Source: an uncultured bacterium (GTDB taxonomy: Bacteria; UBP14; UBA6098; B30-G16). Taken from it: a DNA stretch of 46,535 bases. Shown here piece by piece: positions 17,416 through 38,523 of this stretch. Position 1 is the stretch's first letter. The number at the start of each line of letters is the position of its first letter. Under the pieces are notes generated by a model that was given only the letters and a program-made list of their open reading frames with translations, had not been told where the DNA came from and did not search any database. The stretch is from positions 1 to 46,535 of the forward strand of contig CAZLTJ010000007.1 in assembly GCA_964562425.1 (NCBI GenBank), in the 5' to 3' direction. A program made the translations under genes and the position numbers.

Positions 17416-19146
17416 TTAACCTTTCACTTGTGATTCAATGTCTGGTATTGGTTTACCTCTCATTGACTGACCTTCCATTGAAAAGGCGTTAATCTTTCCT
17501 TCTTTTACTAACTTTCTAAGCCTTGGCGATTTCACCTTGACACCTAATACCCATGACCCCGTGATAATAGTTTGACCGCCCTCTTCAAAATCAGCGCGGG
17601 CAATACCACTTTCGATTATTGCAACATCGGCCTTGGATAAAGATTTGCGGTGCATCTCGTTTATGGTTTGATGATCCTCCATAAACTTATGTGCCGCTTT
17701 CTCTATCTCTTCCGCTGTTGCGTAATCGCCTTGGAGGTCAATAGTATTAGGTTCATAGACAACGCCCAGGACTTTGCCTTCTTTCAATAGCCTTTCAGAT
17801 TTAATGATTGGTATTTTTTTATTTATTAAAACATCCCCATCATTTGTATTATTTGAATCGGCTATCCATCCAAGCTTTTTCAAATCCTCAATAATGGTTT
17901 TGTCTGCTTTTAATATTTTCTTTTCATCAGCAAGCTTAATGATATACTTTACCCTGTCTGGTTTCTGCTCGCCTTGATTGACTTCCTTAACAATAGCGTC
18001 CTTAATTATTGCATGATATTGTTTGTCTATCTTGTAAGGCTCGATTGATTTTGCAAGGACAGTAACAATATCATTTTCATCAACGTCAATTTCAGGTGTT
18101 TCAATCTCAATGGCCTTGTGAATATTCTCCGCGTCATTGCCGTCCTTTTTCGTGTCAATGACATATCCCAAATCAAGCATCATCAAACCCTTTAATTCCG
18201 ACTCCTTTTTGTTTATAACTTTAAATTTCAATTCTACCATGTGTTTATTTTGTACAGTACTATTGCCACCGCTATACAAAGTACTGCTATTGAAAATAGT
18301 TCTAACATCTCTTTCACCTTTGATAATGTTTACCAATTCAAGAGATAGTCTATTGAGATTATCTTCATTTAGCCGGATGTCTTTTCTTGATTGCATTTCT
18401 TCATATACTGCCTTTGCTTCTTTGATAATGTCCAATTCAATATTATCTTTTAATCTCTGCTGTTTATATTCATTACACAATATGCTAAAGTGTTTTATCA
18501 ATAGACCGTCACTATACTTTATAACTTTGCTTTTTACTTTATTCTTGATAATGCTGTGGACATGACCGTCCTTTTCCTTAATATCAAATTCAACTACATC
18601 ATGGAAATGTTCATTAAAGATTGATGTTCTGCCGTTTCCTTTTTCATCCAGGTCAACCGTATGCTTATGATCGTCAACTTCCGATGTCTCAAACTTCTCC
18701 TTCTTGAGTCCCTTATTAACGGCCTCTTCAAAAAGGATGGGTGTATGATTATGATCCTTAAGCCAGGCTCTTGCTTCTGCCGGTGTGAATTTCTTAGCGT
18801 CAAACCGGATAGCCTGTAATACTGATTTATCATCTGACGTAATGCCAAAGATAAAATCAATACCCGCGCCGCCCTTATCATTTTGTCTCGCAAACTTATC
18901 AAACTTTTTAGGGTCAACTAATCTTCCGCTATGTTCATTTGGAAACGGTTTGTTAATTACGTTTTTTGATTTGTCTTCTTTTCCAATCATTTTAGATCCG
19001 CATTCAGGACATACTTCGTTTACGCAAGGCGTACCCCTATCATGTTGTTTCTCATGTCCGCATTCAGGGCATACGCATTTATCCGCACCGCCGTCCCTTT
19101 GCGCTGCATTCCCCTGTCCCATACCCCGGCCGCGTATCTTTTTCAT
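17416..19146 (-). CDS. prohead protease-like protein (XkdF-type C-terminal domain) with N-terminal zinc ribbon
   Basis: 576 aa. The N-terminus has CPECGHEKQHDRGTPCVNEVCPECG. The C-terminal ~130 aa matches the XkdF-like pattern (YEPNTIDLQGDYATAEEIEKAAHKFM...HR...IIESGIA). Positioned between portal and scaffold. Confidence 0.6.
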   Translation of the reverse strand: MKKIRGRGMGQGNAAQRDGGADKCVCPECGHEKQHDRGTPCVNEVCPECGSKMIGKEDKSKNVINKPFPNEHSGRLVDPKKFDKFARQNDKGGAGIDFIFGITSDDKSVLQAIRFDAKKFTPAEARAWLKDHNHTPILFEEAVNKGLKKEKFETSEVDDHKHTVDLDEKGNGRTSIFNEHFHDVVEFDIKEKDGHVHSIIKNKVKSKVIKYSDGLLIKHFSILCNEYKQQRLKDNIELDIIKEAKAVYEEMQSRKDIRLNEDNLNRLSLELVNIIKGERDVRTIFNSSTLYSGGNSTVQNKHMVELKFKVINKKESELKGLMMLDLGYVIDTKKDGNDAENIHKAIEIETPEIDVDENDIVTVLAKSIEPYKIDKQYHAIIKDAIVKEVNQGEQKPDRVKYIIKLADEKKILKADKTIIEDLKKLGWIADSNNTNDGDVLINKKIPIIKSERLLKEGKVLGVVYEPNTIDLQGDYATAEEIEKAAHKFMEDHQTINEMHRKSLSKADVAIIESGIARADFEEGGQTIITGSWVLGVKVKSPRLRKLVKEGKINAFSMEGQSMRGKPIPDIESQVKG

Positions 19147-26050: not shown

Positions 26051-26710
26051 CTAAAACAACTCCCCTTGTGCCTGCTCCTCTTTTAAGCGACGGCAGCTTA
26101 AATCATAATATTTCTTTTCTTTTTCAATACAAATAAAACGGCGGTTTAAACGGTGGGCCGCGATCGCGGTTGTGCCAGACCCGGAAAACGGATCAAGTAT
26201 TAAATCGTTTTCTTTACCATAATCATATAAAATCTTCTCAAACAATTTCACTGGTTTTTGCGTTGGATGGATGCGTTTTTGCTTGTCTGCAGATTCCTTC
26301 GTGGTTGCTCTATTGTGAAAACTACACATTGTTATTTTTTTTAATGCCCTTTGAAAACTGGTATAAATCAACTCACCATCTGAAAAATCACCGCCCATCA
26401 TTTTATCCCAAAATATCCATCCCATTGAAGATGTCAAATATTCTACGAAATAATTCGCACCAAATATTATTTGATTTTTAGAAACCCTAAATATCTCACT
26501 AAAGCAATCTGCAGACGGCTTCTCCCTGTCCCATTTTATTTTATCATAAGTGGTAAATTGAACACCGCCCCTTGTTCTATCTGGTCTATATCCATCCTCA
26601 CCTATTGCATAAGGAGGATCTGTCAATACTAAATCAATAGAATTATCAGGTAACTCTTTTAATATATCCATACAATCGGCGTGTATTATTTTATTGATAT
26701 ATTCTTTCAT
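26051..26710 (-). CDS. DNA methyltransferase (N6-adenine or N4-cytosine, beta class)
   Basis: 219 aa. Catalytic motif IV LTDPPYAIG lies near the N-terminus and AdoMet motif I DPFSGSGTT near the C-terminus. Confidence 0.85.
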   Translation of the reverse strand: MKEYINKIIHADCMDILKELPDNSIDLVLTDPPYAIGEDGYRPDRTRGGVQFTTYDKIKWDREKPSADCFSEIFRVSKNQIIFGANYFVEYLTSSMGWIFWDKMMGGDFSDGELIYTSFQRALKKITMCSFHNRATTKESADKQKRIHPTQKPVKLFEKILYDYGKENDLILDPFSGSGTTAIAAHRLNRRFICIEKEKKYYDLSCRRLKEEQAQGELF

Positions 26711-26916: not shown

Positions 26917-27753
26917 TCATCCTTTCCTTAATTCATCAAGTAGTTTAATTGTCGCTTCGGCTTCATGCAATTTAAACTTGCCCTCATTAATAATAGCTTC
27001 GTAATTTTGAATATGCAGATCGTTATCCGATAGGTCGAGCAATTGGCCGTTGATAAGAAAATCCCTCCTGATCTTTCCTTCGCTGCTTTTAATTCCGTGT
27101 TTATCGACCGTTGAACTGGCAATTGATAGAGACCAAGCCGCCCTCGCATAATCAAAAGACGATACGCCCTCTATATGACCATGGCCTAAAGCCGCGCCCG
27201 TACTATCAATAAACGACCCTTTGTGATTACCAAACATATACAGAAGCAAATCGAATAAATGTATCCCGATATTAGAAAGCAAGCCGCCCGATTTGACGAC
27301 ATCGCCCTTCCAGCTTTTAGAATACCAATCTCCACGCGGAGTCCTATATACGATTTCAACAATATTTTTTGCATCGCGCTTGAAGTTTACTATCTCGGGA
27401 TGTAGACGTAATTGACTTATGAAACGAATGTGACTTTTAGCTAAATATAACCTGTTAAAATCGTACATGCTTAAGACAAGCGGCTTTTCGCAGATGACAT
27501 ATTTTGATCGTGAAAGTAAACAATGCTGAAAATGTAAATGGTTCGGCGTACAGATGACCGTATAATCGCAATCGGCCGTCCACCGGAAAAACTCTGTCTC
27601 GCAGGTAGTGAATTTAATTCCCCTATCAAAACTATCAAGCCAGCCAACATTTGTCGAGATATCACAAGCATATTTGACCGTATGTCCCAGGTCGTAAATG
27701 ACTTTAACATGACGCGGTGCAATGTAACCTAATCCTATAATTGCAAATTTCAT
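26917..27753 (-). CDS. Gfo/Idh/MocA-family NAD(P)-dependent sugar oxidoreductase
   Basis: 278 aa. N-terminal Rossmann motif MKFAIIGLGYIAPRH and the family EKP motif (VICEKPL). ATGA overlap with the upstream kinase-like gene. Confidence 0.7.
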   Translation of the reverse strand: MKFAIIGLGYIAPRHVKVIYDLGHTVKYACDISTNVGWLDSFDRGIKFTTCETEFFRWTADCDYTVICTPNHLHFQHCLLSRSKYVICEKPLVLSMYDFNRLYLAKSHIRFISQLRLHPEIVNFKRDAKNIVEIVYRTPRGDWYSKSWKGDVVKSGGLLSNIGIHLFDLLLYMFGNHKGSFIDSTGAALGHGHIEGVSSFDYARAAWSLSIASSTVDKHGIKSSEGKIRRDFLINGQLLDLSDNDLHIQNYEAIINEGKFKLHEAEATIKLLDELRKG

Positions 27754-28142
27754 AATTTAGGCTCCGGGGATTGTAAATCATGTCCGAAATAATAAACCCC
27801 GTCTTCATATTCATAAGGATATTCCGGGTGAACTTTCCCGCCACTAAGATAAATAAATACGCAGCCTGTTATTTCCTGTATTGCTTTTCTGGTTTTCTTA
27901 TATGGCGCTATGACCGAGACAATCACATCAACGCCTTGAGAGTCAATCAGCTTTGCGATTTTGGCAATTCTCAAGTTATGGTTGTGTCTATTGTCTTCAG
28001 AAAATCCCGTTGGATAAATATCCCGAATTGCATCGCCATCCAAAAGAACAGCACTCTTGCCGAATTTTCTTAGCTGACCTTGCATCTGAAGACCAAGGGA
28101 AGTTTTGCCACTTTCACTTTGCCCTGTAATCCATATTATCAC
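27750..28142 (-). CDS. adenylylsulfate (APS) kinase-like P-loop kinase, short form
   Basis: 130 aa. Aligns by eye with E. coli CysC over about 95 residues: P-loop WITGQSESGKTS, LLDGDAIR, GFSEDNRHNHNLR and VIAPYKKTR. Lacks the CysC C-terminal lid (KGLYKKAR). GTG start with GGAGG 7 nt upstream. Confidence 0.6.
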   Translation of the reverse strand: MIIWITGQSESGKTSLGLQMQGQLRKFGKSAVLLDGDAIRDIYPTGFSEDNRHNHNLRIAKIAKLIDSQGVDVIVSVIAPYKKTRKAIQEITGCVFIYLSGGKVHPEYPYEYEDGVYYFGHDLQSPEPKL

Positions 28143-28258
28143 TTCTGTTCCTCCGGTATAACCAATGAATCAGACATCATCTTATCGTATTTAAGTATGT
28201 CTTTTGTGTCAGACTTACCTCCGCAGCCAAGGAGAAGTAAGAGAATTAAGTATTTCAT
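28139..28258 (-). CDS. small lipoprotein (39 aa)
   Basis: Not in the ORF track. Hand translation: MKYLILLLLLGCGGKSDTKDILKYDKMMSDSLVIPEEQK. Classical lipobox LLGC. The ATG overlaps the upstream stop (ATGA) and the stop overlaps the downstream GTG start (GTGA). Confidence 0.5.
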   Translation of the reverse strand: MKYLILLLLLGCGGKSDTKDILKYDKMMSDSLVIPEEQK

Positions 28259-28836
28259 TTCAGAGCACCCCATTGTTCGGCCATAGCATCAGCCGGGCCT
28301 TGATAAGTGATTGACCTCAATTTACCCCTGTCCTCGGATGGAGGCATTCTGTGTATTCTGGCCTCACGCCCGGAAACTATATTAGTGGGGTTCAAGGGCG
28401 GTAGGTTTTGCAGCCATAAACAAGTGGCCTTAGTTTCCCCGTGTCCGAATTGCCACGGCTGGATTAACTGGTTGTGTTTTCTGCCTATAACCTTTACCGC
28501 GTATTTGTGCATTATTGGGTTTTCGACTGCAATTTTATCAACCGGAGCATCCATCATAGCTTTAAAAAATAGGGCGGCTTGATACATTTTATTCCACCGG
28601 TCCTCATTGTCTTTCAGCCAGCGCACCCCCGAATTACATAGATAAGTACAGTCAGGATGAGCAATGAGCATATCCCATCCATCATAAAGCCAATGAAATA
28701 CGTTCCCTTGGTAATGGAATCCGGCCTCTTTCTTGGATTCGGTCGGCCTGAAATCACATGACCAGGCGTCATGTCCTCTCGCCCTGAACGCATCCCTAAC
28801 GATACCGGAGAACTCACAAGCTACCAAAACTTTCAT
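28255..28836 (-). CDS. short C5-cytosine methyltransferase-like protein
   Basis: 193 aa. Motif I-like VACEFSG, a motif IV-like Cys (HPDCTYLCNSG) and motif VI-like AVENPIM. No obvious target-recognition domain. Visibly more GC-rich than its neighbours. Confidence 0.45.
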   Translation of the reverse strand: MKVLVACEFSGIVRDAFRARGHDAWSCDFRPTESKKEAGFHYQGNVFHWLYDGWDMLIAHPDCTYLCNSGVRWLKDNEDRWNKMYQAALFFKAMMDAPVDKIAVENPIMHKYAVKVIGRKHNQLIQPWQFGHGETKATCLWLQNLPPLNPTNIVSGREARIHRMPPSEDRGKLRSITYQGPADAMAEQWGALK

Positions 28837-30035: not shown

Positions 30036-30070
30036 CCTCTATCCCTCCCTTTTAGGTAATGTACCCGTAC
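30032..30070 (-). repeat. gene-junction cassette, copy 2 (diverged)
   Basis: Plus strand ccatcctctatccctcccttttaggtaatgtacccgtac. Encodes the GTGTLPKREG tail, an SD and the next ATG. Confidence 0.6.
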
Positions 30071-30446
30071 CGTTGCACTGCCACTTATTATTACAATGCC
30101 TTTCAAAGCACTCCCACGTATTGCCATAGGGGTTCTTAATCCATGTTGAATTACATTCAGGGCAGTGTGTGGGTTTCTGTTCAGGGCATTGGTCTGGTAA
30201 TGTAGGTAAAGGCTCATAAGTCATTTCAAAGATGTCTGGTTTGCATGGATAGTATTCACCTTTTACCCCTCTGATAATCCAATCTCCTGACTCTGCCTGC
30301 ATAGAACCCTCAAGCGTATCAATGAATAAGTACCGCCCCTTTACCCTGATTGACGATATGAGTTTCATGTTCTCAACGCACTGTGGGTCATCTGGATTCC
30401 ACTGGTCTGCATCAATCTCAACTGGTTTCTTTATATATCTTGCCAT
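30039..30446 (-). CDS. hypothetical phage protein (KKPV...YPCKPDIFE domain) with Cys-rich tail
   Basis: The track ORF runs to 30527. I prefer the ATG at 30446 (MARYIKKPVEIDA...) because GGAGGAG lies 7 nt upstream and it sits 4 nt after the upstream stop. The C-terminus ends in HCPEC...CNGTGTLPKREG. Confidence 0.5.
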   Translation of the reverse strand: MARYIKKPVEIDADQWNPDDPQCVENMKLISSIRVKGRYLFIDTLEGSMQAESGDWIIRGVKGEYYPCKPDIFEMTYEPLPTLPDQCPEQKPTHCPECNSTWIKNPYGNTWECFERHCNNKWQCNGTGTLPKREG

Positions 30447-30450
30447 CTGT

Positions 30451-30942
30451 TTACTCCTCCTCTGGTAATGTAGGTAAAGGCATCCAGTGGGTGACCTCCC
30501 AACCATCATCTTTATCAGTATCACCACACCAATCTACCCAATATTTTTGGGTCGAGTCATAGTAGGCTTGAAAATGAACAATCTTTCCGCAAGTTTTAAC
30601 TTTGACTAATTTCCCTATTTTGTTTTCCGGCAATCTATCTTTAACGCTTATCCATTCAGGCCGTTCCAGCCCAGCCTGTACAGCCAAGAGGAATGTCAAT
30701 TCAGCTTCTGCGTTTCTAATTGTTGTACCATACATACCGTTTGGCTTTTCCCACAACCATGCAAGACACTTTTCAAGATTTCCCATGGATGGGATCTTTG
30801 GCTTATCAGGGGTGCAGGATTTGAGTTTTTTTTCTAAAAAATCTACATAATCAGGATTTGCAAGTTCTCTGCCTATCTCCTGCTTGGTTATTTTCCACCA
30901 TATTTCACGCCCGAACTCTTTACGCAATTCTGATACTGTCAT
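30451..30942 (-). CDS. DUF551-domain protein
   Basis: 163 aa. C-terminal DUF551 signature WISVKDRLPE ... VTHWMPLPTLPE. Confidence 0.6.
   Translation of the reverse strand: MTVSELRKEFGREIWWKITKQEIGRELANPDYVDFLEKKLKSCTPDKPKIPSMGNLEKCLAWLWEKPNGMYGTTIRNAEAELTFLLAVQAGLERPEWISVKDRLPENKIGKLVKVKTCGKIVHFQAYYDSTQKYWVDWCGDTDKDDGWEVTHWMPLPTLPEEE
30625..30684 (-). repeat. 60-nt block identical to 31627-31686
   Basis: ttccggcaatctatctttaacgcttatccattcaggccgttccagcccagcctgtacagc occurs verbatim in both DUF551 genes. It encodes AVQAGLERPEWISVKDRLPE. Confidence 0.9.
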
Positions 30943-31288: not shown

Positions 31289-31486
31289 TCAGCAAAACCC
31301 ATTAATTTCTTTTTTTAATAATTTAATTTCATTTTTAAGCCGTTCAATTACCCTCTGCTGTTTTCGTATTTTACGATTGGATGTGACCAATTCAGTTCGC
31401 CATTCAAATGCCTGTGCTTTCCATAAATTAGCCTGTGTCCTATATGCAGGTGGTAAGTCTAAATCGGTCATTGGTTTGTTGTCCAT
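31289..31486 (-). CDS. hypothetical coiled-coil protein
   Basis: 65-aa ORF. The ATG overlaps the upstream stop (TAATG) within junction cassette copy 4. Confidence 0.4.
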   Translation of the reverse strand: MDNKPMTDLDLPPAYRTQANLWKAQAFEWRTELVTSNRKIRKQQRVIERLKNEIKLLKKEINGFC

Positions 31487-31536
31487 TACTCCCCCTCGCT
31501 TTCAGGTAATGTAGGTAAAGGCATCCAGTGGGTGAC
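31483..31536 (-). repeat. gene-junction cassette, copy 4, merged with the DUF551 3' block
   Basis: Plus strand ccattactccccctcgctttcaggtaatgtaggtaaaggcatccagtgggtgac. Its last 32 nt are identical to 30464-30495. Confidence 0.8.
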
Positions 31537-31983
31537 ACCGTTTAAATCAAATTCCCCAAGCCCGCTAAAATAATAATCCGTTGTAATGATGCCGTCCTGT
31601 CGTGCCACAATATAGTCGGCGCGTTCTTCCGGCAATCTATCTTTAACGCTTATCCATTCAGGCCGTTCCAGCCCAGCCTGTACAGCAATCTTAATCAAAT
31701 CATATATTTTTTCAATAGCATCTCTAGAGGCTTTTTCAACACCATATTCTACAAGATAATGACCACCATCTCTATGCAGTATGGCAAGTATTTCTTGCAG
31801 CCAATGTTTATAATTTCCAGGTTCCTTTGGCTTATCAGGGGTGCGGGTGTTCCATTTCTCAAATGAGTGAAATGTCTCGCTTAAAATACAACCTGATGGT
31901 GGATGCCACACCAATTTTTTTTTGTTTGAATAACCAGGTAAAATTCCACAAAACGGACACGGTTTCAATTCTGATACTGTCAT
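31486..31983 (-). CDS. Lar-like (restriction alleviation family) N-terminal domain fused to DUF551
   Basis: 165 aa. The N-terminal LKPCPFCG ... EKWNTR matches the Lar-family signature, but the second Cys pair is degenerate. The C-terminus has DUF551 (WISVKDRLPE ... VTHWMPLPTLPE). Confidence 0.55.
   Translation of the reverse strand: MTVSELKPCPFCGILPGYSNKKKLVWHPPSGCILSETFHSFEKWNTRTPDKPKEPGNYKHWLQEILAILHRDGGHYLVEYGVEKASRDAIEKIYDLIKIAVQAGLERPEWISVKDRLPEERADYIVARQDGIITTDYYFSGLGEFDLNGVTHWMPLPTLPESEGE
31627..31686 (-). repeat. 60-nt block identical to 30625-30684
   Basis: Second copy of the same 60-mer, checked base by base. Confidence 0.9.
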
Positions 31984-32548: not shown

Positions 32549-33235
32549 TTAGTATAAATTAAAGTCATTTAATATCGTATTCATTGTCCTTGAGTATTGT
32601 CCTGAATGCCACTTTAATATTTTCTCAGTGGGGTTGCGCCCGCTTTGCATCCACCATATAGGGTGGATATTACATTGTACGGATTGCCCTTTTTTAAACC
32701 ACTCGCTTTCAAATGGATTCCCTTCACGGAAAAATCCCCTTGAATCAGAGATATATTTAATGTCCCCAAACCATTGCTTTTTATAAGTATGTTCTATTGT
32801 TGGTGCATAGCTTGAAAAAGATTTTATTGCAGGTTTATGAATTGATATTATCTTTGGGAATATGCAAAATGTTTTAAAAAATATACTGCATTCAGTATAA
32901 CATTCAACTTTAACGTCTTCACCATAGATACCGGGATTAAAATGTAAGCTGATATCATGATGTTTTAATATATTATTAATCAACGTCCTGTTTTCTTCTT
33001 CCAGTATGCTATAAAAAGGTAGTGTCATTATAAAGAAATACGTTGCATCTATCCCGTAAGAATTTTCAAGCAGTGACATTGCGTAAGCATATTGTATGTC
33101 AAAGTCAATATCATGTCTTAATATTACTTGTTTATCTTTACCATGCTCAAAAATCTTGAACGTCTTAAAGACGTAATCATGTTTAATAAAAGTATCTAAG
33201 AAATTATGGTATGTGCCGAACTCATTTGTATTCAT
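32549..33235 (-). CDS. polysaccharide deacetylase-like protein
   Basis: 228 aa. The VILRHDIDFD ... GIDATYFF pattern resembles the divergent polysaccharide deacetylase/carbohydrate esterase families found in surface-glycan clusters. Overlaps the sulfotransferase gene by 14 nt. Confidence 0.4.
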   Translation of the reverse strand: MNTNEFGTYHNFLDTFIKHDYVFKTFKIFEHGKDKQVILRHDIDFDIQYAYAMSLLENSYGIDATYFFIMTLPFYSILEEENRTLINNILKHHDISLHFNPGIYGEDVKVECYTECSIFFKTFCIFPKIISIHKPAIKSFSSYAPTIEHTYKKQWFGDIKYISDSRGFFREGNPFESEWFKKGQSVQCNIHPIWWMQSGRNPTEKILKWHSGQYSRTMNTILNDFNLY

Positions 33236-34160
33236 TTAATGCCTTTCCATTATAATTTAATTTGATTATGATATCTTCCAGCATAACTTTAAGTAAAGAT
33301 ATTTCACTGGCTGTCAAATCCTTTCTCCATCTTCCAATATTGTGTTTGTTTAGATTAATATCCAACATCTTTTTATTAAATGGCAGACCGATAAAATTAC
33401 AAATATCCGTAATAGTTTCTTTAGGATTATGTATTAATTTTTCAAATCTGATTTCATAAAAAGAATTTACAGGCAATCCCTTTCTTATTTCAAACCAGCG
33501 ATTAATAATATCAGCGTACATTTTAACCGATAATTCAATTTCAGACGGACACCATCTTTGTTTTACGAATGAAGTTACAACGTCTAGCGGATTGCGGTAT
33601 ATGTGAATTATTTTAGCGTCCGGCATTATTTCTAATAGCTCTTTAGCAAAAAGAATATTCCATGTGTTATCTTCAACATACATTTTTTTATTCTGCTTCT
33701 TAAGAATACTGCTGATAACATCATTGATAAACTTTCTTATGATAGGTTTTAATGTTTCTTTAGATTTAGGTGACGAATAACACATTTGTATTGCTTGATT
33801 TTCTGCACCAATCCACGATCCATAAAAATAAAAAGTATGCAATTCGTTAATTAATTTAACAACAAACTCACTGAATTCTGGAATATGTTTATCAAGTTCC
33901 CAATCCTTATAACCAATGAGTTGTGATTTCTTGTTAGAAAGTTTTTCTAAAAGAGTTTCCAGTCTTTTCAATCGCCTGTCAATTACATAAGGTGTCCACG
34001 TTTCAAAACTATTATAGAAATCAACTAACCCATCCGGATCGATTATAAACCGATATTCAAAAGGCAGCGTTGCGATATCAGTGTGCAAGCCTAAAATATC
34101 TTTAAGAATGTTAGTACCGCACCTGCCAGTACCGCCTATGAATACAATTTTAGTTTCCAT
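33222..34160 (-). CDS. PAPS-dependent sulfotransferase
   Basis: 312 aa. 5'-phosphosulfate-binding loop FIGGTGRCGTN at the N-terminus and 3'-phosphate-binding motif IIHIYRNPLDVVTS mid-protein. Confidence 0.7.
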   Translation of the reverse strand: METKIVFIGGTGRCGTNILKDILGLHTDIATLPFEYRFIIDPDGLVDFYNSFETWTPYVIDRRLKRLETLLEKLSNKKSQLIGYKDWELDKHIPEFSEFVVKLINELHTFYFYGSWIGAENQAIQMCYSSPKSKETLKPIIRKFINDVISSILKKQNKKMYVEDNTWNILFAKELLEIMPDAKIIHIYRNPLDVVTSFVKQRWCPSEIELSVKMYADIINRWFEIRKGLPVNSFYEIRFEKLIHNPKETITDICNFIGLPFNKKMLDINLNKHNIGRWRKDLTASEISLLKVMLEDIIIKLNYNGKALNEYK

Positions 34161-34176
34161 TTGTCCTCCATAGTTT

Positions 34177-34764
34177 TTATAAATAAGCCTTAAGGAATTC
34201 AGCGATTTTGTTTCCTAGAACATTATTGCCGAAATCGTTTTGATGAACACCGTCTGTTGATATACATTTTTTTCTGTTGTTTTCAATAATAACTTTATGC
34301 AGATCGTTGACGGTTATATTTTCATCCTCGATCACCTCTAGGGAAGCTTTATTATATTTGTCAACATCTATATTATTGCGAATATAAATTTTTGTTTCTT
34401 GGCTTTCTTTTCTAAGGGGTGTTATCGTTGCCCATATTAATGTAATATTTTCTGATTTGCAACGCTGAATTACTTCACGAATATTTTTTTGATATTGCGG
34501 TACGCTGCAGCAATAATTTCCACGCCGTTCTAAATCCTTCCATATTTTTAAATCATGCAGGCCAGCATTCCAGTGCATTATATCCGGCTTGATTAATGTA
34601 ACCCATTTGTTCCAGTTATTCAAAATATATACCGACCGACCGCCATTATCGCTATATTCTTTGTCTTTTATAATTGAAAAGTCAGCTTTTCCCTTTAGCC
34701 GATCCATAACAACATGACGGTATCTTTTACATATACTATCACCTGCAAGCAATATTTTTTTCAT
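34177..34764 (-). CDS. SGNH/GDSL-family hydrolase (esterase)
   Basis: 195 aa. Block I LLAGDSI with the nucleophile Ser, and block V TDGVHQN (DxxH). Confidence 0.7.
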   Translation of the reverse strand: MKKILLAGDSICKRYRHVVMDRLKGKADFSIIKDKEYSDNGGRSVYILNNWNKWVTLIKPDIMHWNAGLHDLKIWKDLERRGNYCCSVPQYQKNIREVIQRCKSENITLIWATITPLRKESQETKIYIRNNIDVDKYNKASLEVIEDENITVNDLHKVIIENNRKKCISTDGVHQNDFGNNVLGNKIAEFLKAYL

Positions 34765-36087
34765 TTAAAACCTCACATATTCAATAAGCGCTACATTTTT
34801 TCCAAAGAATTCTTTAAATCCCTGCCTGAATTGATTAAGTCCGGTATTTAATATTTCTTCAGTTATCATGTATGTATGAAATTCATTTGGCTTAATATTC
34901 AATCCGGTAAGGATTAAAATATTCGTCTTTGTTACTCGACCTATCTGTAATAGCGCCCTGTCCAAATGACAAACGCTATCTAATACAGCAAAGGCAATTG
35001 TAGTATCAAACCATAAATCAGGATAGCTTAGTTTTTCTATTTTCATCCTTACTACATTATTATTTACAGGATATGCGTCAATGCCGGTGTATTCTGTATC
35101 GGGCGATAAGTATCCTTTCACAATCATTGATCCGCATCCAATATCTAAAACTTTCTTTCCGATGTTTACCTTTTTAACGTGTGAATCATACTTGTTTACC
35201 GGCCCCTTGATTAAGTTTACACGTTCTTTCCTGCGCTCCTTTCTACGCTGCATTAGATTTTCCATTTTTCTATACCACACCTGCCTTTCATTATTACGGA
35301 TCGTGTGGAGCGCTTCCATTTCTTCATCGCTGATTTGTTCTTTTTGATTTTGCTCTTGTGCCTTCAAAATAATTCCCTTGTTATTAGTTTCTATTCCAGT
35401 TAATTTCCAATTAATACTTTGCGCTAAAATTGTCAGGGGTTCGGGGTTTGCAATAGTTTCTTTCCAAATTGTACGATCTTTCCCTGCTCTCGGTTGATTA
35501 ATTAAATATCCCGTTTCGTGATTAACAGCTATAATTGGTATGTTCTTTTCCTGTGCAAAAATAGAAAACTCCACATCATCTAAATTTCTATTCTTAAATT
35601 CACTTAATTTAATTTCTATCGTATCTGAATGATATGACATTACCCCTGTACCGGCAACATGAATCTCTCTATCGTTAGGCCAATCGCGTAAACATCTACA
35701 TATAATTTCCTGGTCAACAATCCAATGGTGTAATGGTTGTTTTAAAATACGACCGTGTAAAGTTATAATTGCCCTGCGTTCATATTGTTCTATTTTTGCA
35801 ATTGATTTTTCTATATAATCTTCAGGATAGATAATGTCATCATCCAAATAAAATAAATAGCCTTTGATTTTATCAGAGATGTAAAACCTGCTTGCCGATC
35901 CATAGTCTTTACCAATAATACAAATTATTTTATCATTATCTAAAAGGAAGCCAGGCACACTACTAAAATCATTGAGGTAAATATAAAACGTATCGATCTG
36001 GTCAATTATACTTGATACTGCCTTTTGTAAATATTCGACTCTGTTTGGCATTGTTGGTATGATTGCGGTTTTCATTTTAGAAATCAT
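34765..36087 (-). CDS. bifunctional GT-A glycosyltransferase / class I SAM methyltransferase
   Basis: 440 aa. The N-terminal GT2-like half has TAIIPTMPNR and the DxD motif FYLDDDIIYP. A basic linker follows, then a C-terminal methyltransferase with motif I KVLDIGCGS. Confidence 0.65.
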   Translation of the reverse strand: MISKMKTAIIPTMPNRVEYLQKAVSSIIDQIDTFYIYLNDFSSVPGFLLDNDKIICIIGKDYGSASRFYISDKIKGYLFYLDDDIIYPEDYIEKSIAKIEQYERRAIITLHGRILKQPLHHWIVDQEIICRCLRDWPNDREIHVAGTGVMSYHSDTIEIKLSEFKNRNLDDVEFSIFAQEKNIPIIAVNHETGYLINQPRAGKDRTIWKETIANPEPLTILAQSINWKLTGIETNNKGIILKAQEQNQKEQISDEEMEALHTIRNNERQVWYRKMENLMQRRKERRKERVNLIKGPVNKYDSHVKKVNIGKKVLDIGCGSMIVKGYLSPDTEYTGIDAYPVNNNVVRMKIEKLSYPDLWFDTTIAFAVLDSVCHLDRALLQIGRVTKTNILILTGLNIKPNEFHTYMITEEILNTGLNQFRQGFKEFFGKNVALIEYVRF

Positions 36088-36766
36088 TTAATTCCCTCCG
36101 GTATTCCCATTCTTTACGGTTAGCTTTATAGCTTTCCTTTTGATGTTGTCTTTTCTTTGGCCTTAAATCCTGCCTGTTATGAATTAACATTGTATCGCCA
36201 TTTTTATCTACAAGTGACTTTCTTGTTTTATTCATCCTGCCCTTTGCACTTGTAACTAATCCGCTTTCTAAGTCCCCTTCCTTATGCTGTCTTGTCCTGT
36301 AAATCGTGCAATGACGGTATCGGTATTCAATATCGTCATACATTTTATAACCCCGGACAGTATTGAGCATCAAAGTGGTGCCGTCTTCGTGAAACCGTTT
36401 TTGTTTTATACGGTATACATCTTCTGTTAATTCTATTCCATCCCAACTGAATGGCTGCATTATTTCATCCGCATCAATGGAAAAACAATAGGAACCTATC
36501 GGCGTATGTTTAAAATATTGGTTTCTTTTTACCGCCTGGTTAAACCAAAAATCTTTAGGTGCGCTAACATGAATATCAGCATATTTTCTAACAACATCAA
36601 TACATCCATCGGTTGAATAATATTTTTCATTTGGCAATAATGGAAACTCTTTAAAAGCGCCGTCTACTGCAATTATTTTAAAACCATTTGCCTTTAATGC
36701 TTTAAAGCAACTCTCAAGCAAGCCAGGCGAATCATTATAATAGATGACCCCTGCATATAATTTCAT
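36077..36766 (-). CDS. GT-A type glycosyltransferase-like protein (paralog of 14685-15488)
   Basis: The track ORF starts at GTG 36793. I prefer ATG 36766 (MKLYAGVIYYND), which aligns with MNLIACTIFFND of the paralog. Motifs IAVDGAFKEF, YSTDGCIDVV and FSIDADEI. Confidence 0.6.
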   Translation of the reverse strand: MKLYAGVIYYNDSPGLLESCFKALKANGFKIIAVDGAFKEFPLLPNEKYYSTDGCIDVVRKYADIHVSAPKDFWFNQAVKRNQYFKHTPIGSYCFSIDADEIMQPFSWDGIELTEDVYRIKQKRFHEDGTTLMLNTVRGYKMYDDIEYRYRHCTIYRTRQHKEGDLESGLVTSAKGRMNKTRKSLVDKNGDTMLIHNRQDLRPKKRQHQKESYKANRKEWEYRRELNDF

Positions 36767-36780
36767 TTTAAAATCTCTGT

Positions 36781-36897
36781 TTATTTCTTCCACATTCTAC
36801 TTCTGTTTGCTTTTGAACCCATAAAAAATACTACATATAATAATAGCATAATTATATAAAGTAGAAACACATCAAATAGAATGTGAATCCACCCCAT
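36781..36897 (-). CDS. 38-aa hydrophobic peptide
   Basis: Hand translation MGWIHILFDVFLLYIIMLLLYVVFFMGSKANRSRMWKK gives one TM helix plus a basic tail. GGAAG lies 2 nt before the ATG (short SD spacing). Lies between two GT genes. Could be chance in AT-rich DNA. Confidence 0.3.
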   Translation of the reverse strand: MGWIHILFDVFLLYIIMLLLYVVFFMGSKANRSRMWKK

Positions 36898-36925
36898 TGC
36901 TTCCGGATCAATCGAATCTTTAATT

Positions 36926-37741
36926 TCATATAATCTTTTTATCAAATACATCTTTACTTAATCCTAATAATCTATCTGCGATATATTCAGGGACAATATC
37001 GCCGATGACTTTATCGGTTTTATAAAAAGGCGGTTGTGGGTTTTGATAGTGCCGGACTCTCTTAAGGGAAATTTTATTGAATCCATCTGTATTAATACCA
37101 GTTTCCCAATTCCCTCCATTCCATATAGTATTCATATCAGATCTAAATATATCATATTTAACCGATCTTGCATTCCTATAAAGCCAACCATCAATCGTAA
37201 AGCCCTTATCTCTAAACGGAAGATTTTTAATAAGCTCCATCCTTATAGAGATGTTTACACCTTTCGACGAAAAGGACTTTGATTTTTTAGATGGGATATG
37301 ACTTCTTAATATAATCTGTCCCGTTTTGCAATTATAAAAATATATGTTTTCATAATGTATCCAATCGTATCCGCCCTTTATATGATTATAAGCAGTTGAA
37401 ATCCTATCATTCTGTGAATAGTTATCAGATGCTTGCAATAACAACATCTCTGATTTTTTATCAGCTGACTGGACAATGAATTTCCATTTACTTTCAAGGG
37501 TCACATAATCTTCCAAGTCAATAAATTTTATTTCCCTGCACCCTGCTTTATAAAGCCTGTCTCTGTAAGAATCAAAGAATTGATTTCCGCAATATCCATC
37601 TTCACTATCAGGACATAATTCTTCACAGATAATTAATTCCCATTTAAAATTAATGTTTACTTGATTACATAGGCTTTCCATGGCAAGCCATACGATTGCA
37701 CTTGATTTAAACACTGGCAAACCTACGGATAGTTCAATCAT
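36926..37741 (-). CDS. family 2-like glycosyltransferase
   Basis: 271 aa. Typical GT2 N-terminus LSVGLPVFKSSAIVWLAMESLCNQ. ATGA-type overlap with the upstream acyltransferase gene. Confidence 0.6.
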   Translation of the reverse strand: MIELSVGLPVFKSSAIVWLAMESLCNQVNINFKWELIICEELCPDSEDGYCGNQFFDSYRDRLYKAGCREIKFIDLEDYVTLESKWKFIVQSADKKSEMLLLQASDNYSQNDRISTAYNHIKGGYDWIHYENIYFYNCKTGQIILRSHIPSKKSKSFSSKGVNISIRMELIKNLPFRDKGFTIDGWLYRNARSVKYDIFRSDMNTIWNGGNWETGINTDGFNKISLKRVRHYQNPQPPFYKTDKVIGDIVPEYIADRLLGLSKDVFDKKII

Positions 37742-38523
37742 TTAGTTTCTTGCCTTTTTGCAGGGACACCCATTACTGTAATATTGTCAGGTATGTCTTT
37801 AGTGACCACACTCCCCATGCCCACCATGCAATTACTCCCTACTTTAATTCTGTTTCTGATTATAGCACCCGGAGCTATCCGCGTACCCTCTCCTATTTCG
37901 CAATGACCGAGCAGGATTGCGCTGGACATAATCAAAGAGTTGTCGCCTATTTTAACGTCATGCGATATGGAGCAAAGATTATCTATCTTCACACCATTTC
38001 CAATTACAGTATTGCCAAAAGTCCCCCGGTCAATGCAGACACAAGCACCAATGTCAACGTTATTTCCAATTATCACACCGCCGATATTAGGAAATCGAAT
38101 AGGTTTATTATTTTCATCCTTAACGAATCCATAATTATCTTTTCCTATAACACTATTTTCGCCTACATAAACGTCTCTGCCTGTTTCACAACAGGAATAA
38201 ACAGTAGCATTGTCAAACTTACTGTTATTTATCCCATCTCTTATAGGAAATTTCTGCATTTGATAATGATAAAACTGTTTAATAACCTTTGCCATTGCAA
38301 GGCGCGGATTATCAACAGGAATAAATGATTTACATTCACCATACACTTCCTCTAATTCCGGTGCTAATACAATCATATTTTGATTTAATAATTTAACAAC
38401 ATCATTATACATAAACGTCAACGTATTCTCTTTGTAATTATCAAACTCCGACACTCCTTCAATTTCAACGTCCTCTCCAATGATAGGCGCGTTTAAAAAT
38501 TCTGCTATTACAGATAGTTTCAT
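37738..38523 (-). CDS. LpxD-type UDP-aminosugar N-acyltransferase (left-handed beta-helix)
   Basis: 261 aa. LpxD-like N-terminal domain (MKLSVIAEFLNAPIIGEDVEIEGVSEFDNYKENTLTFM). The hexapeptide core aligns closely with E. coli LpxD and keeps the catalytic His context: IGGVIIGNNVDIGACVCIDRGTFGNTVIGNGVKIDNLCSISHDVKIGDN. Confidence 0.75.
   Translation of the reverse strand: MKLSVIAEFLNAPIIGEDVEIEGVSEFDNYKENTLTFMYNDVVKLLNQNMIVLAPELEEVYGECKSFIPVDNPRLAMAKVIKQFYHYQMQKFPIRDGINNSKFDNATVYSCCETGRDVYVGENSVIGKDNYGFVKDENNKPIRFPNIGGVIIGNNVDIGACVCIDRGTFGNTVIGNGVKIDNLCSISHDVKIGDNSLIMSSAILLGHCEIGEGTRIAPGAIIRNRIKVGSNCMVGMGSVVTKDIPDNITVMGVPAKRQETK

Follow-up and report, generated by a model that had tools for sequence, protein, structure and literature searches.

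The stretch of DNA analysed here (the window, all 46,535 nucleotides of it, from contig CAZLTJ010000007.1 of assembly GCA_964562425.1) is a fragment of a tailed-phage genome that encodes a terminase, a portal protein, a major capsid protein, a tape measure protein and a primase-helicase and carries every gene on the minus strand. At positions 27750-28142 lies a gene for a short protein of the adenosine 5'-phosphosulfate (APS) kinase family, hereafter the kinase, which lacks the mobile lid of canonical CysC enzymes. With a probability of roughly 0.68, this protein is a naturally lidless, catalytically competent APS kinase that makes 3'-phosphoadenosine 5'-phosphosulfate (PAPS) from host APS for a sulfotransferase encoded by the same phage.

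Identity of the kinase

The kinase gene (27750-28142, minus strand, 130 aa, GTG start) encodes a protein that matches the Pfam profile APS_kinase (PF01583) over residues 1-93 and profile positions 3-97 of 152, with E=5.9e-22 and 78.8 bits, above the Pfam gathering score of 21.1 and far beyond chance. The second-best kinase-type Pfam family, Zeta_toxin, reaches 18.7 bits and stands 60 bits behind, so that the comparison with other P-loop kinase profiles proposed in the earlier note comes out in favour of APS_kinase. The nearest NCBIfam models are likewise those of adenylyl-sulfate kinases, yet the score falls under every curated subfamily cut-off, and among PHROGs the match is no more specific than a 'kinase' family (phrog_10255, E=2.9e-7). 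By sequence, the closest solved relatives are the archaeal APS kinases 7YQ0 (A. fulgidus) and 8A8H (M. thermolithotrophicus), at E=1e-15, and the ATP sulfurylases 1m8p, 1i2d and 3cr8 are also found among the homologues in the PDB. An AlphaFold2 model, built on an alignment of 62 family members, has a pLDDT of 91 and a pTM of 0.84. In a Foldseek search of the PDB, the top 50 matches of this model consist entirely of APS kinases and APS-kinase domains, with no better match to another kinase family, and the top matches superpose with a root-mean-square deviation of typically 1.2-1.4 Å over about 101-108 aligned columns (TM(query) 0.66-0.83).

The 130-residue CysC-like product described in the earlier note, with its P-loop, LDGD, GFS..R..N and IAP motifs, is borne out, all of these motifs being present at verified coordinates. 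Residue conservation was counted over 62 lidless family members, and the motifs of the kinase are as follows:

28101-28124, minus strand: Walker A P-loop GQSESGKT (G7-T14); G7, G12 and K13 invariant, T/S14 in 62/62.
28023-28043, minus strand: LDGDAIR (L34-R40), with the Mg/ribose-binding aspartates; D35 and R40 invariant.
27975-28007, minus strand: GFSEDNRHNHN (G46-N56); R52 in 60/62, N56 in 50/62, F47 in 35/62.
27903-27911, minus strand: I78-A79-P80, counterpart of the canonical (I/V)SP; P80 invariant (62/62).
27819-27845, minus strand: SGGKVHPEY, a nine-residue loop in place of the ~30-residue lid, as placed by motif spacing and the hhalign gap.
27810-27818, minus strand: PYE (P109-Y110-E111), aligning with the canonical PYE; conserved in 58-62 of 62.

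R52, R85, P109 and E111 are conserved at 90% or more across the lidless members, and the two aspartates of LDGD vary little or not at all. Several of these residues correspond to substrate contacts described in the CysC of Mycobacterium tuberculosis (Mtb): R40 to Arg483, a phosphosulfate ligand; R52 to Arg497, a ligand of the sulfate and of adenine N1; I78-A79 to Ile523/Ser524, whose backbone amides clamp the phosphosulfate; and F47 to a Phe of the core, against which the APS adenine stacks (PMC4373884). The clamp Ser is replaced by Ala or Cys in most of the clade, the contact being made through the backbone. As judged from the alignment, the APS phosphosulfate ligands of Mtb CysC are all kept in the kinase, in the form of R40, R52 and the I-A-P backbone.

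The missing lid

The lid of Mtb CysC comprises residues 552-581, located between beta4 and beta5, and contributes Arg559, which stacks on the ATP adenine, Lys562, which touches the gamma-phosphate and the APS 2'-OH, and Phe576, which stacks on the APS adenine (PMC4373884). When the short family is aligned with canonical APS kinases by hhalign (probability 100%, E=1.4e-45), a single gap of ~23 residues appears opposite the canonical CxxRDxKGLYxKAxxGxIxxFTG segment, and the PYE motifs beyond it align. Between (I/V)(S/A/C)P and PYE, lidless members have a spacing of 31-34 residues and lid-bearing homologues one of 54-59; by a second measure, the lidless spacing comes to 29-31 residues. The C-terminal helix of the kinase is also shortened, and the total length is 130 aa versus ~170-200 in canonical enzymes.

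The earlier note had described a truncated gene whose product lacks the C-terminal lid. The lid is indeed absent, but through an internal deletion of ~23 aa, with PYE kept and the C-terminus shortened, and not through a simple C-terminal truncation; the word 'truncated' is misleading, since the short form is the rule in a large clade. Because it has no lid and scores under the NCBIfam equivalog threshold, the kinase is set apart here as a variant and not as an ordinary member of the family.

Distribution of lidless kinases

When 1.84 billion representative proteins were searched exhaustively with HMMER, 4456 matched, and the top of the list consists mostly of proteins 105-160 aa long whose alignment reaches query position ~112, PYE included. 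Targeted scans found the family in 50 viral contigs (IMG/VR) and 79 genome contigs, the latter nearly all from the Candidate Phyla Radiation (CPR)/Patescibacteria (Peribacteria/Peregrinibacteria, Saccharibacteria, Parcubacteria, Woesebacteria and others) together with one Nanoarchaeote; the scan pattern was built from the P-loop of the family itself, and this taxonomic picture is therefore biased toward the family. Lid status was decided by competing hidden Markov model (HMM) scores, which assign the lidless form to 137 of the 142 fetched loci, while L137-L139 are canonical Bacteroidota sequences. On sequence grounds, lidless kinases are a large undescribed clade common to phages, ultra-small bacteria and archaea. 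In public sources, the family members carry no protein names. The literature searched, which left most subscription journals outside, so that an earlier description is possible, gave no account of lidless APS kinases, of their distribution in CPR and phages or of their pairing with sulfotransferases.

Linkage to sulfate activation and sulfotransferases

Gene neighbourhoods were counted in 112 non-redundant lidless loci, with open reading frame (ORF) calls made for this analysis and iteratively built HMMs, partly cross-checked with Pfam. At least one partner, either a sulfotransferase, CysD/CysN or an NMNAT-like adenylyltransferase, adjoins the lidless kinase or is fused to it in 97/112 loci, distributed as follows:

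Sulfotransferase 8 kb or less from the lidless kinase: 49/112 loci.
Sulfotransferase 1 kb or less from the lidless kinase: 30/112 loci.
Sulfotransferase abutting the lidless kinase: 20/112 loci.
NMNAT-like adenylyltransferase 1 kb or less from the lidless kinase: 74/112 loci, 26 of them fused.
CysD 3 kb or less from the lidless kinase: 6/112 loci.

Sulfotransferases found within 8 kb are concentrated within 1 kb (binomial p=1e-15 versus uniform placement), and Pfam confirmed Sulfotransfer_3 in 43 of 54 neighbouring proteins. Fusions join the lidless kinase to a sulfotransferase (P0014, P0099), to CysD (P0088; NF003587, 278 bits versus a cut-off of 195) or, in proteins of ~600 aa encoded next to CysD in four Peribacteria/Peregrinibacteria genomes, to CysN (L078:6600-8456; L097:6651-8456; L120:6645-8465; L114:3-1769). 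In the Peribacteria CysD/CysN-C systems located beside sulfotransferases, the lidless domain is the sole kinase. Moreover, another phage has, within a glycan cluster, an adenylyltransferase gene followed by that of a lidless kinase, which a NUMOD3 endonuclease insert separates from a sulfotransferase gene, and the Nanoarchaeote locus combines a lidless kinase with a sulfotransferase and a polysaccharide flippase. Homing-endonuclease-type domains (NUMOD3, HNH) are repeatedly inserted next to lidless kinase genes or joined to the N-terminus of the encoded protein (P0011, P0033, P0038, P0054, P0062), and the insert between the L001 lidless kinase and its sulfotransferase, at L001:10354-10845, is of this kind.

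The adenylyltransferase is a protein of ~110-130 aa with the motifs GRFQPFHxGH and ISATDIR (for example L001:9675-10001, L019:7306-7644 and L096:7573-7965), and its fusions with a lidless kinase include P0015, P0025 and P0029. CTP_transf_like was confirmed by Pfam in 47 of 48 of these proteins, and their closest solved relatives are archaeal NMN adenylyltransferases. The adenylyltransferase and CysD occur together in 1 locus, the adenylyltransferase alone in 73 and CysD alone in 5 (Fisher p=0.017), which is the pattern expected if both supply the same step. From its sequence and genomic company, the NMNAT-like adenylyltransferase could be a minimal ATP sulfurylase of a new type.

The sulfotransferase and glycan genes of the window

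In the window, the presumed PAPS consumer is encoded 5080 bp from the kinase, within a block of glycan genes at 32549-38523:

32549-33235, minus strand: ORF of 228 aa, overlapping the end of the sulfotransferase gene.
33222-34160, minus strand: sulfotransferase, presumed PAPS consumer (Sulfotransfer_3 83 bits; Sulfotransfer_1 52 bits).
34177-34764, minus strand: SGNH/GDSL hydrolase (Pfam).
34765-36087, minus strand: KfiA/heparosan-synthase-like glycosyltransferase fused to an S-adenosylmethionine-dependent methyltransferase (PDB 8vh7 E=1.7e-21; 5z8b E=2e-12).
36926-37741, minus strand: ORF of 271 aa, in the glycan block.
37738-38523, minus strand: LpxD-like hexapeptide N-acyltransferase (3eh0 E=9e-30).

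The sulfotransferase that the earlier note had placed some 5 kb from the kinase is confirmed by both its profile score and its distance. Its 5'-phosphosulfate loop is G12-R13-C14-G15-T16 and its 3'-phosphate motif R189-N-P-L-D-V-V-T-S197, and among 54 kinase-linked sulfotransferases the corresponding Gly, Arg and Ser columns are kept in 53/54, 52/54 and 50/54, respectively. Since the 3'-phosphate-binding Arg and Ser are kept in the sulfotransferase of the window, a 3'-phosphorylated donor should be needed.

The glycosyltransferase domain of 34765-36087 resembles heparosan synthase PmHS2 and KfiA, and the part of the block at 34177-38523 also holds two ORFs without assignment; neither 32549-33235 nor 36926-37741 has a Pfam or PDB sequence match. 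The genes at 34177-38523 probably make or modify the sulfation acceptor, a link drawn from co-location. Together with the WbpB-like gene coupled to the kinase (see below), the genes of the KfiA-like glycosyltransferase, the LpxD-like acyltransferase, the SGNH hydrolase and the sulfotransferase look like a cassette that builds or remodels a Gram-negative envelope glycan, and the LpxD-, WbpB- and DUF551-type genes suggest a Gram-negative host.

Genes coupled to the kinase and other features of the window

The kinase gene is the third of four ORFs chained by start/stop overlaps of 4 nt (ATGA, GTGA, ATGA), in the order 193-aa methyltransferase-like ORF, 39-aa lipobox ORF, kinase and 278-aa Gfo/Idh/MocA oxidoreductase. 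A GGAGG Shine-Dalgarno sequence lies 5' of its GTG start, and the N-terminus 'MIIWITG' is the same start as that of family members in the alignment with homologues. Its neighbours are:

28255-28836, minus strand: PHROG-757 'DNA methyltransferase', 193 aa (207 bits); ATGA overlap with the lipobox ORF.
28142-28258, minus strand: 39-aa ORF with a lipobox (LLLGC), whose stop overlaps the kinase start via GTGA.
26917-27753, minus strand: WbpB-like Gfo/Idh/MocA sugar-nucleotide 3-dehydrogenase, 278 aa, whose start overlaps the kinase stop via ATGA.
26051-26710, minus strand: DPPY N6_N4 methyltransferase (Pfam), ~1 kb downstream.

The coupling to a lipoprotein gene and to a Gfo/Idh/MocA gene, and the flanking C5-methyltransferase-like and DPPY methyltransferase genes, had already been noticed and are supported by the overlaps and by the PHROG-757 and N6_N4 assignments. 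The product of 26917-27753 matches PDB WbpB structures (3o9z/3oa2) over its full length at E=1e-37, in agreement with Pfam; WbpB is the UDP-N-acetylglucosaminuronic acid 3-dehydrogenase of O-antigen diacetamido-sugar synthesis. The product of 28255-28836 has no Pfam match and shows C5-methyltransferase-like motifs by eye (ACEFSG, PDCTY, ENP); judged by its length of 193 aa, it seems too short for a target-recognition domain. The 39-aa ORF, which has a lipoprotein signal and lipobox (MKYLILLLLLGC) and is called as a gene in both other contigs of the same phage, could have a role in superinfection exclusion or in the envelope. These two independent JGI metagenome contigs keep the gene order of the kinase region, and their kinase is at least 99% identical to that of the window, the single listed difference being the first residue. 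Cultured-phage GenBank records hold essentially no relative (5 weak tblastn matches and a chance-level megablast match of 63 bp).

Elsewhere in the window, two DUF551 paralogues at 30039-30942 and 31486-31983 (minus strand; 163 and 165 aa) share the terminal string 'VTHWMPLPTLPE', and small ORFs near them repeat 'LPTLPDQCPEQKP'-like strings, from which it seems that a DNA segment recurs at several junctions between the genes of the DUF551 block. In the head module, the 576-aa product of 17416-19146 (minus strand) matches head-maturation-protease PHROGs and a PHROG labelled DNA methyltransferase over residues ~440-563, and its N-terminal 350 residues have no assignment.

Proposed function and its alternatives

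As a lidless APS kinase, the protein would bind ATP-Mg in its Rossmann-like P-loop core through K13/T14 and D35/D37, and APS through R40, R52, F47 and the I78-A79-P80 backbone clamp. The gamma-phosphate would then be moved to the 3'-OH of host-made APS to give PAPS, which the sulfotransferase at 33222-34160 would spend on sulfating a glycan built or modified by the phage WbpB-like, LpxD-like, KfiA-like glycosyltransferase/methyltransferase and SGNH enzymes. This glycan is probably an envelope polysaccharide of a Gram-negative cell or a sugar of the lipopolysaccharide (LPS) type, and possibly a glycan of the virion. The joint role in PAPS supply and PAPS use put forward in the earlier note is favoured, as a prediction, by the fusions to sulfotransferase, CysD and CysN, by the recurrence of sulfotransferases near and abutting lidless kinases and by the conserved 3'-phosphate Arg and Ser.

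Several observations weigh against this proposal. Lid closure has been concluded to be essential in Mtb CysC, where even C556S kills activity (PMC4373884), and across the 62 lidless members there is no conserved stand-in for the lid Arg, Lys or Phe/aromatic. Against TIGR00455, the apsK equivalog model, the kinase scores 76.5, under the cut-off of 138.7. No assayed member of the clade was found in the literature searched. Small unrelated phage genes fill the 5 kb between the sulfotransferase and the kinase. Moreover, phmmer detected no CysD, NMNAT-like adenylyltransferase or related seed match at E<=1 in any of the six-frame window ORFs, and the window ORFs scanned with Pfam contain no CysD, CysN, Sat or adenylyltransferase domain; with no ATP sulfurylase in the window, APS would therefore have to be made by the host.

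The loss of lid residues held essential for catalysis, with no conserved substitute, could instead mean that the protein is a non-catalytic APS/PAPS-binding module, which would serve the sulfotransferase or ATP sulfurylase as a nucleotide carrier, as a scaffold or as a regulator. A scaffold would suit the frequent fusion to partner enzymes, and presumably inactive APS-kinase-like domains exist in ATP sulfurylases, 1m8p, 1i2d and 3cr8 being among the homologues. Such a module is nevertheless unlikely. A mere binding domain would not be expected to preserve the Walker A Lys/Thr and the two LDGD aspartates almost or entirely without variation, as this clade does; the Peribacteria systems beside sulfotransferases have no other kinase than the lidless domain; and the phage of the window encodes no ATP sulfurylase that could be regulated. 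The missing lid Phe, which encloses the APS adenine, could also be seen as opening the acceptor pocket to a different nucleotide, another (d)NDP-X compound, in which case the protein would be a 3'-kinase for CDP-amidate, dephospho-CoA or an ADP-linked product of the adenylyltransferase. The APS-kinase fold has been recruited elsewhere, the distant homologue P0009 being named cytidine diphosphoramidate kinase, and the NMNAT/PPAT-like adenylyltransferase paired with or fused to the lidless kinase in 74/112 loci is formally reminiscent of PPAT with dephospho-CoA kinase. However, both arginines and the backbone clamp for the terminal sulfate of APS are conserved, the sulfotransferases, CysD and CysN that are fused to members of the clade or encoded beside them link it to sulfate activation, and the adenylyltransferase and CysD are seldom found together, as expected for proteins doing the same job; another acceptor thus appears improbable. 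The window ORFs scanned include neither an adenylyltransferase nor a partner of the O-methyl phosphoramidate (MeOPN) pathway, with no amidotransferase or glutamine-kinase domain among them, some small ORFs lying outside the scan. A kinase of the Cj1415 type was rejected as the best reading, since the similarity to P0009 (E=3e-6, 63% coverage) is far weaker than that to solved APS kinases (E=1e-15) and partner genes are missing, and an acceptor of the CoA or NAD type was judged less likely on account of the conserved sulfate-binding arginines and of the clade links to CysD, CysN and sulfotransferases.

The gene is one of four overlapping ORFs in a row, the first of them C5-methyltransferase-like, and the DPPY methyltransferase gene lies 1 kb downstream. 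This position had raised the alternative of a DNA or nucleotide kinase that takes part in hypermodification of phage DNA with the flanking methyltransferases. This alternative has gained nothing and is very unlikely: start/stop codon overlaps are commonplace in compact phage genomes, the methyltransferases are not recurrent neighbours of the family (PHROG-757 gene in 0 loci, N6_N4 methyltransferase in 3), and the gene directly coupled downstream encodes a WbpB-type UDP-sugar dehydrogenase. No DNA- or nucleotide-kinase profile scores comparably among those of Pfam, NCBIfam and PHROGs, a set without a dedicated hypermodification-kinase profile. A DNA-modification kinase was rejected on the profile scores, the unconserved methyltransferase neighbours and the WbpB identity of the coupled gene. 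The small size of the protein, 50-70 residues shorter than canonical CysC, and its score under the TIGR00455 cut-off might in turn point to a decaying, functionless remnant of a cysC captured from a host. This is hardly credible for an architecture found again in over 130 loci, with little variation in the spacing of its motifs and strong residue conservation, and for a gene with an intact start codon and Shine-Dalgarno sequence that is translationally coupled, encodes a compact fold predicted with confidence and is at least 99% identical, in the same gene order, in two other metagenome contigs. A pseudogene or a truncation artefact was rejected on the clade-wide conservation of the architecture.

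Comparison with known systems

With canonical CysC (Mtb 4BZQ, A. fulgidus 7YQ0/7YQ1, P. chrysogenum 1M7G), the kinase proposed here as a lidless APS kinase shares the fold, the P-loop, LDGDxxR, GF(S/T)xxxR..N, (I/V)(S/A)P and PYE motifs and the predicted phosphosulfate ligands, whereas the mobile lid of ~23-30 residues (RDxKGLY...FTGID) is absent and the C-terminal helix is shorter. The cassettes NodP/NodQ with NodH and RaxP/RaxQ with RaxST sulfate a secreted or surface molecule. As in the window, where the pairing is predicted from the genes, an APS kinase is encoded in them together with a PAPS-dependent sulfotransferase, and the likeness to NodQ/NodH and RaxQ/RaxST drawn in the earlier note holds to that extent. 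The analogy is incomplete, since the window offers only a kinase and a sulfotransferase with no ATP-sulfurylase component (CysD, CysN or Sat), the kinase is lidless and the pair is borne by a virus. The likeness to NodQ is closer in related loci, where the lidless domain forms CysN-kinase fusions beside CysD, at the position that CysC occupies in NodQ or in Mtb CysNC.

Two derived members of the fold provide further points of comparison. Campylobacter Cj1415 phosphorylates CDP-amidate, and this type of cytidine diphosphoramidate kinase has the APS-kinase fold and yields a 3'-phosphorylated nucleotide donor for the modification of a surface glycan. P0009, which bears a Cj1415-like name, is 176 aa long and keeps an insert of lid length, whereas the kinase of the window is lidless and no MeOPN partners are seen with it. 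Fungal ATP sulfurylase (1M8P, 1I2D) has an inactive, allosteric APS-kinase-like C-terminal domain. This domain is a derived version of the APS-kinase fold and a sequence homologue of the kinase, whereas the Walker A motif and LDGD are intact in the lidless clade.

Viral cysC genes have already been listed as auxiliary metabolic genes in metagenomic surveys, which assign them to assimilatory sulfate reduction and mention neither a lidless form nor a pairing with a sulfotransferase (PMC12482060; PMC7940616). Whereas these surveys read the genes in terms of cysteine synthesis, the linkage of the clade described here points to sulfation, with PAPS as the donor.

Implications

If the lidless enzyme is active, the view of lid closure as indispensable for APS kinases would be overturned, and the kinase would be the smallest known PAPS-forming enzyme, with a potential use in enzymatic sulfation and in PAPS regeneration. 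A broader interpretation, which we offer tentatively, holds that lidless APS kinases form a distinct minimal catalytic class able to do without the lid Arg, Lys and Phe; that their NMNAT-like partner is an unrecognised type of ATP sulfurylase that replaces CysDN, the pair working as a miniature PAPS synthase; that phages and CPR/DPANN organisms use it to sulfate glycans, the phage of the window acting on a glycan of the envelope or virion that resembles LPS or heparosan; and that many viral 'cysC' auxiliary metabolic genes serve sulfation.

Phage-directed glycan sulfation and phage kinase-sulfotransferase pairs have no description in the literature searched. If the proposal is true, the phage would supply its own PAPS to sulfate a glycan, and viral 'cysC' auxiliary metabolic genes in viromes would be read as evidence of sulfation and not of assimilatory sulfate reduction. 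Moreover, the dominance of the clade in CPR/Patescibacteria and its presence in a Nanoarchaeote, together with the adenylyltransferase pairing, may mean that sulfated surface molecules are a trait of episymbiotic microbes that has gone unnoticed.

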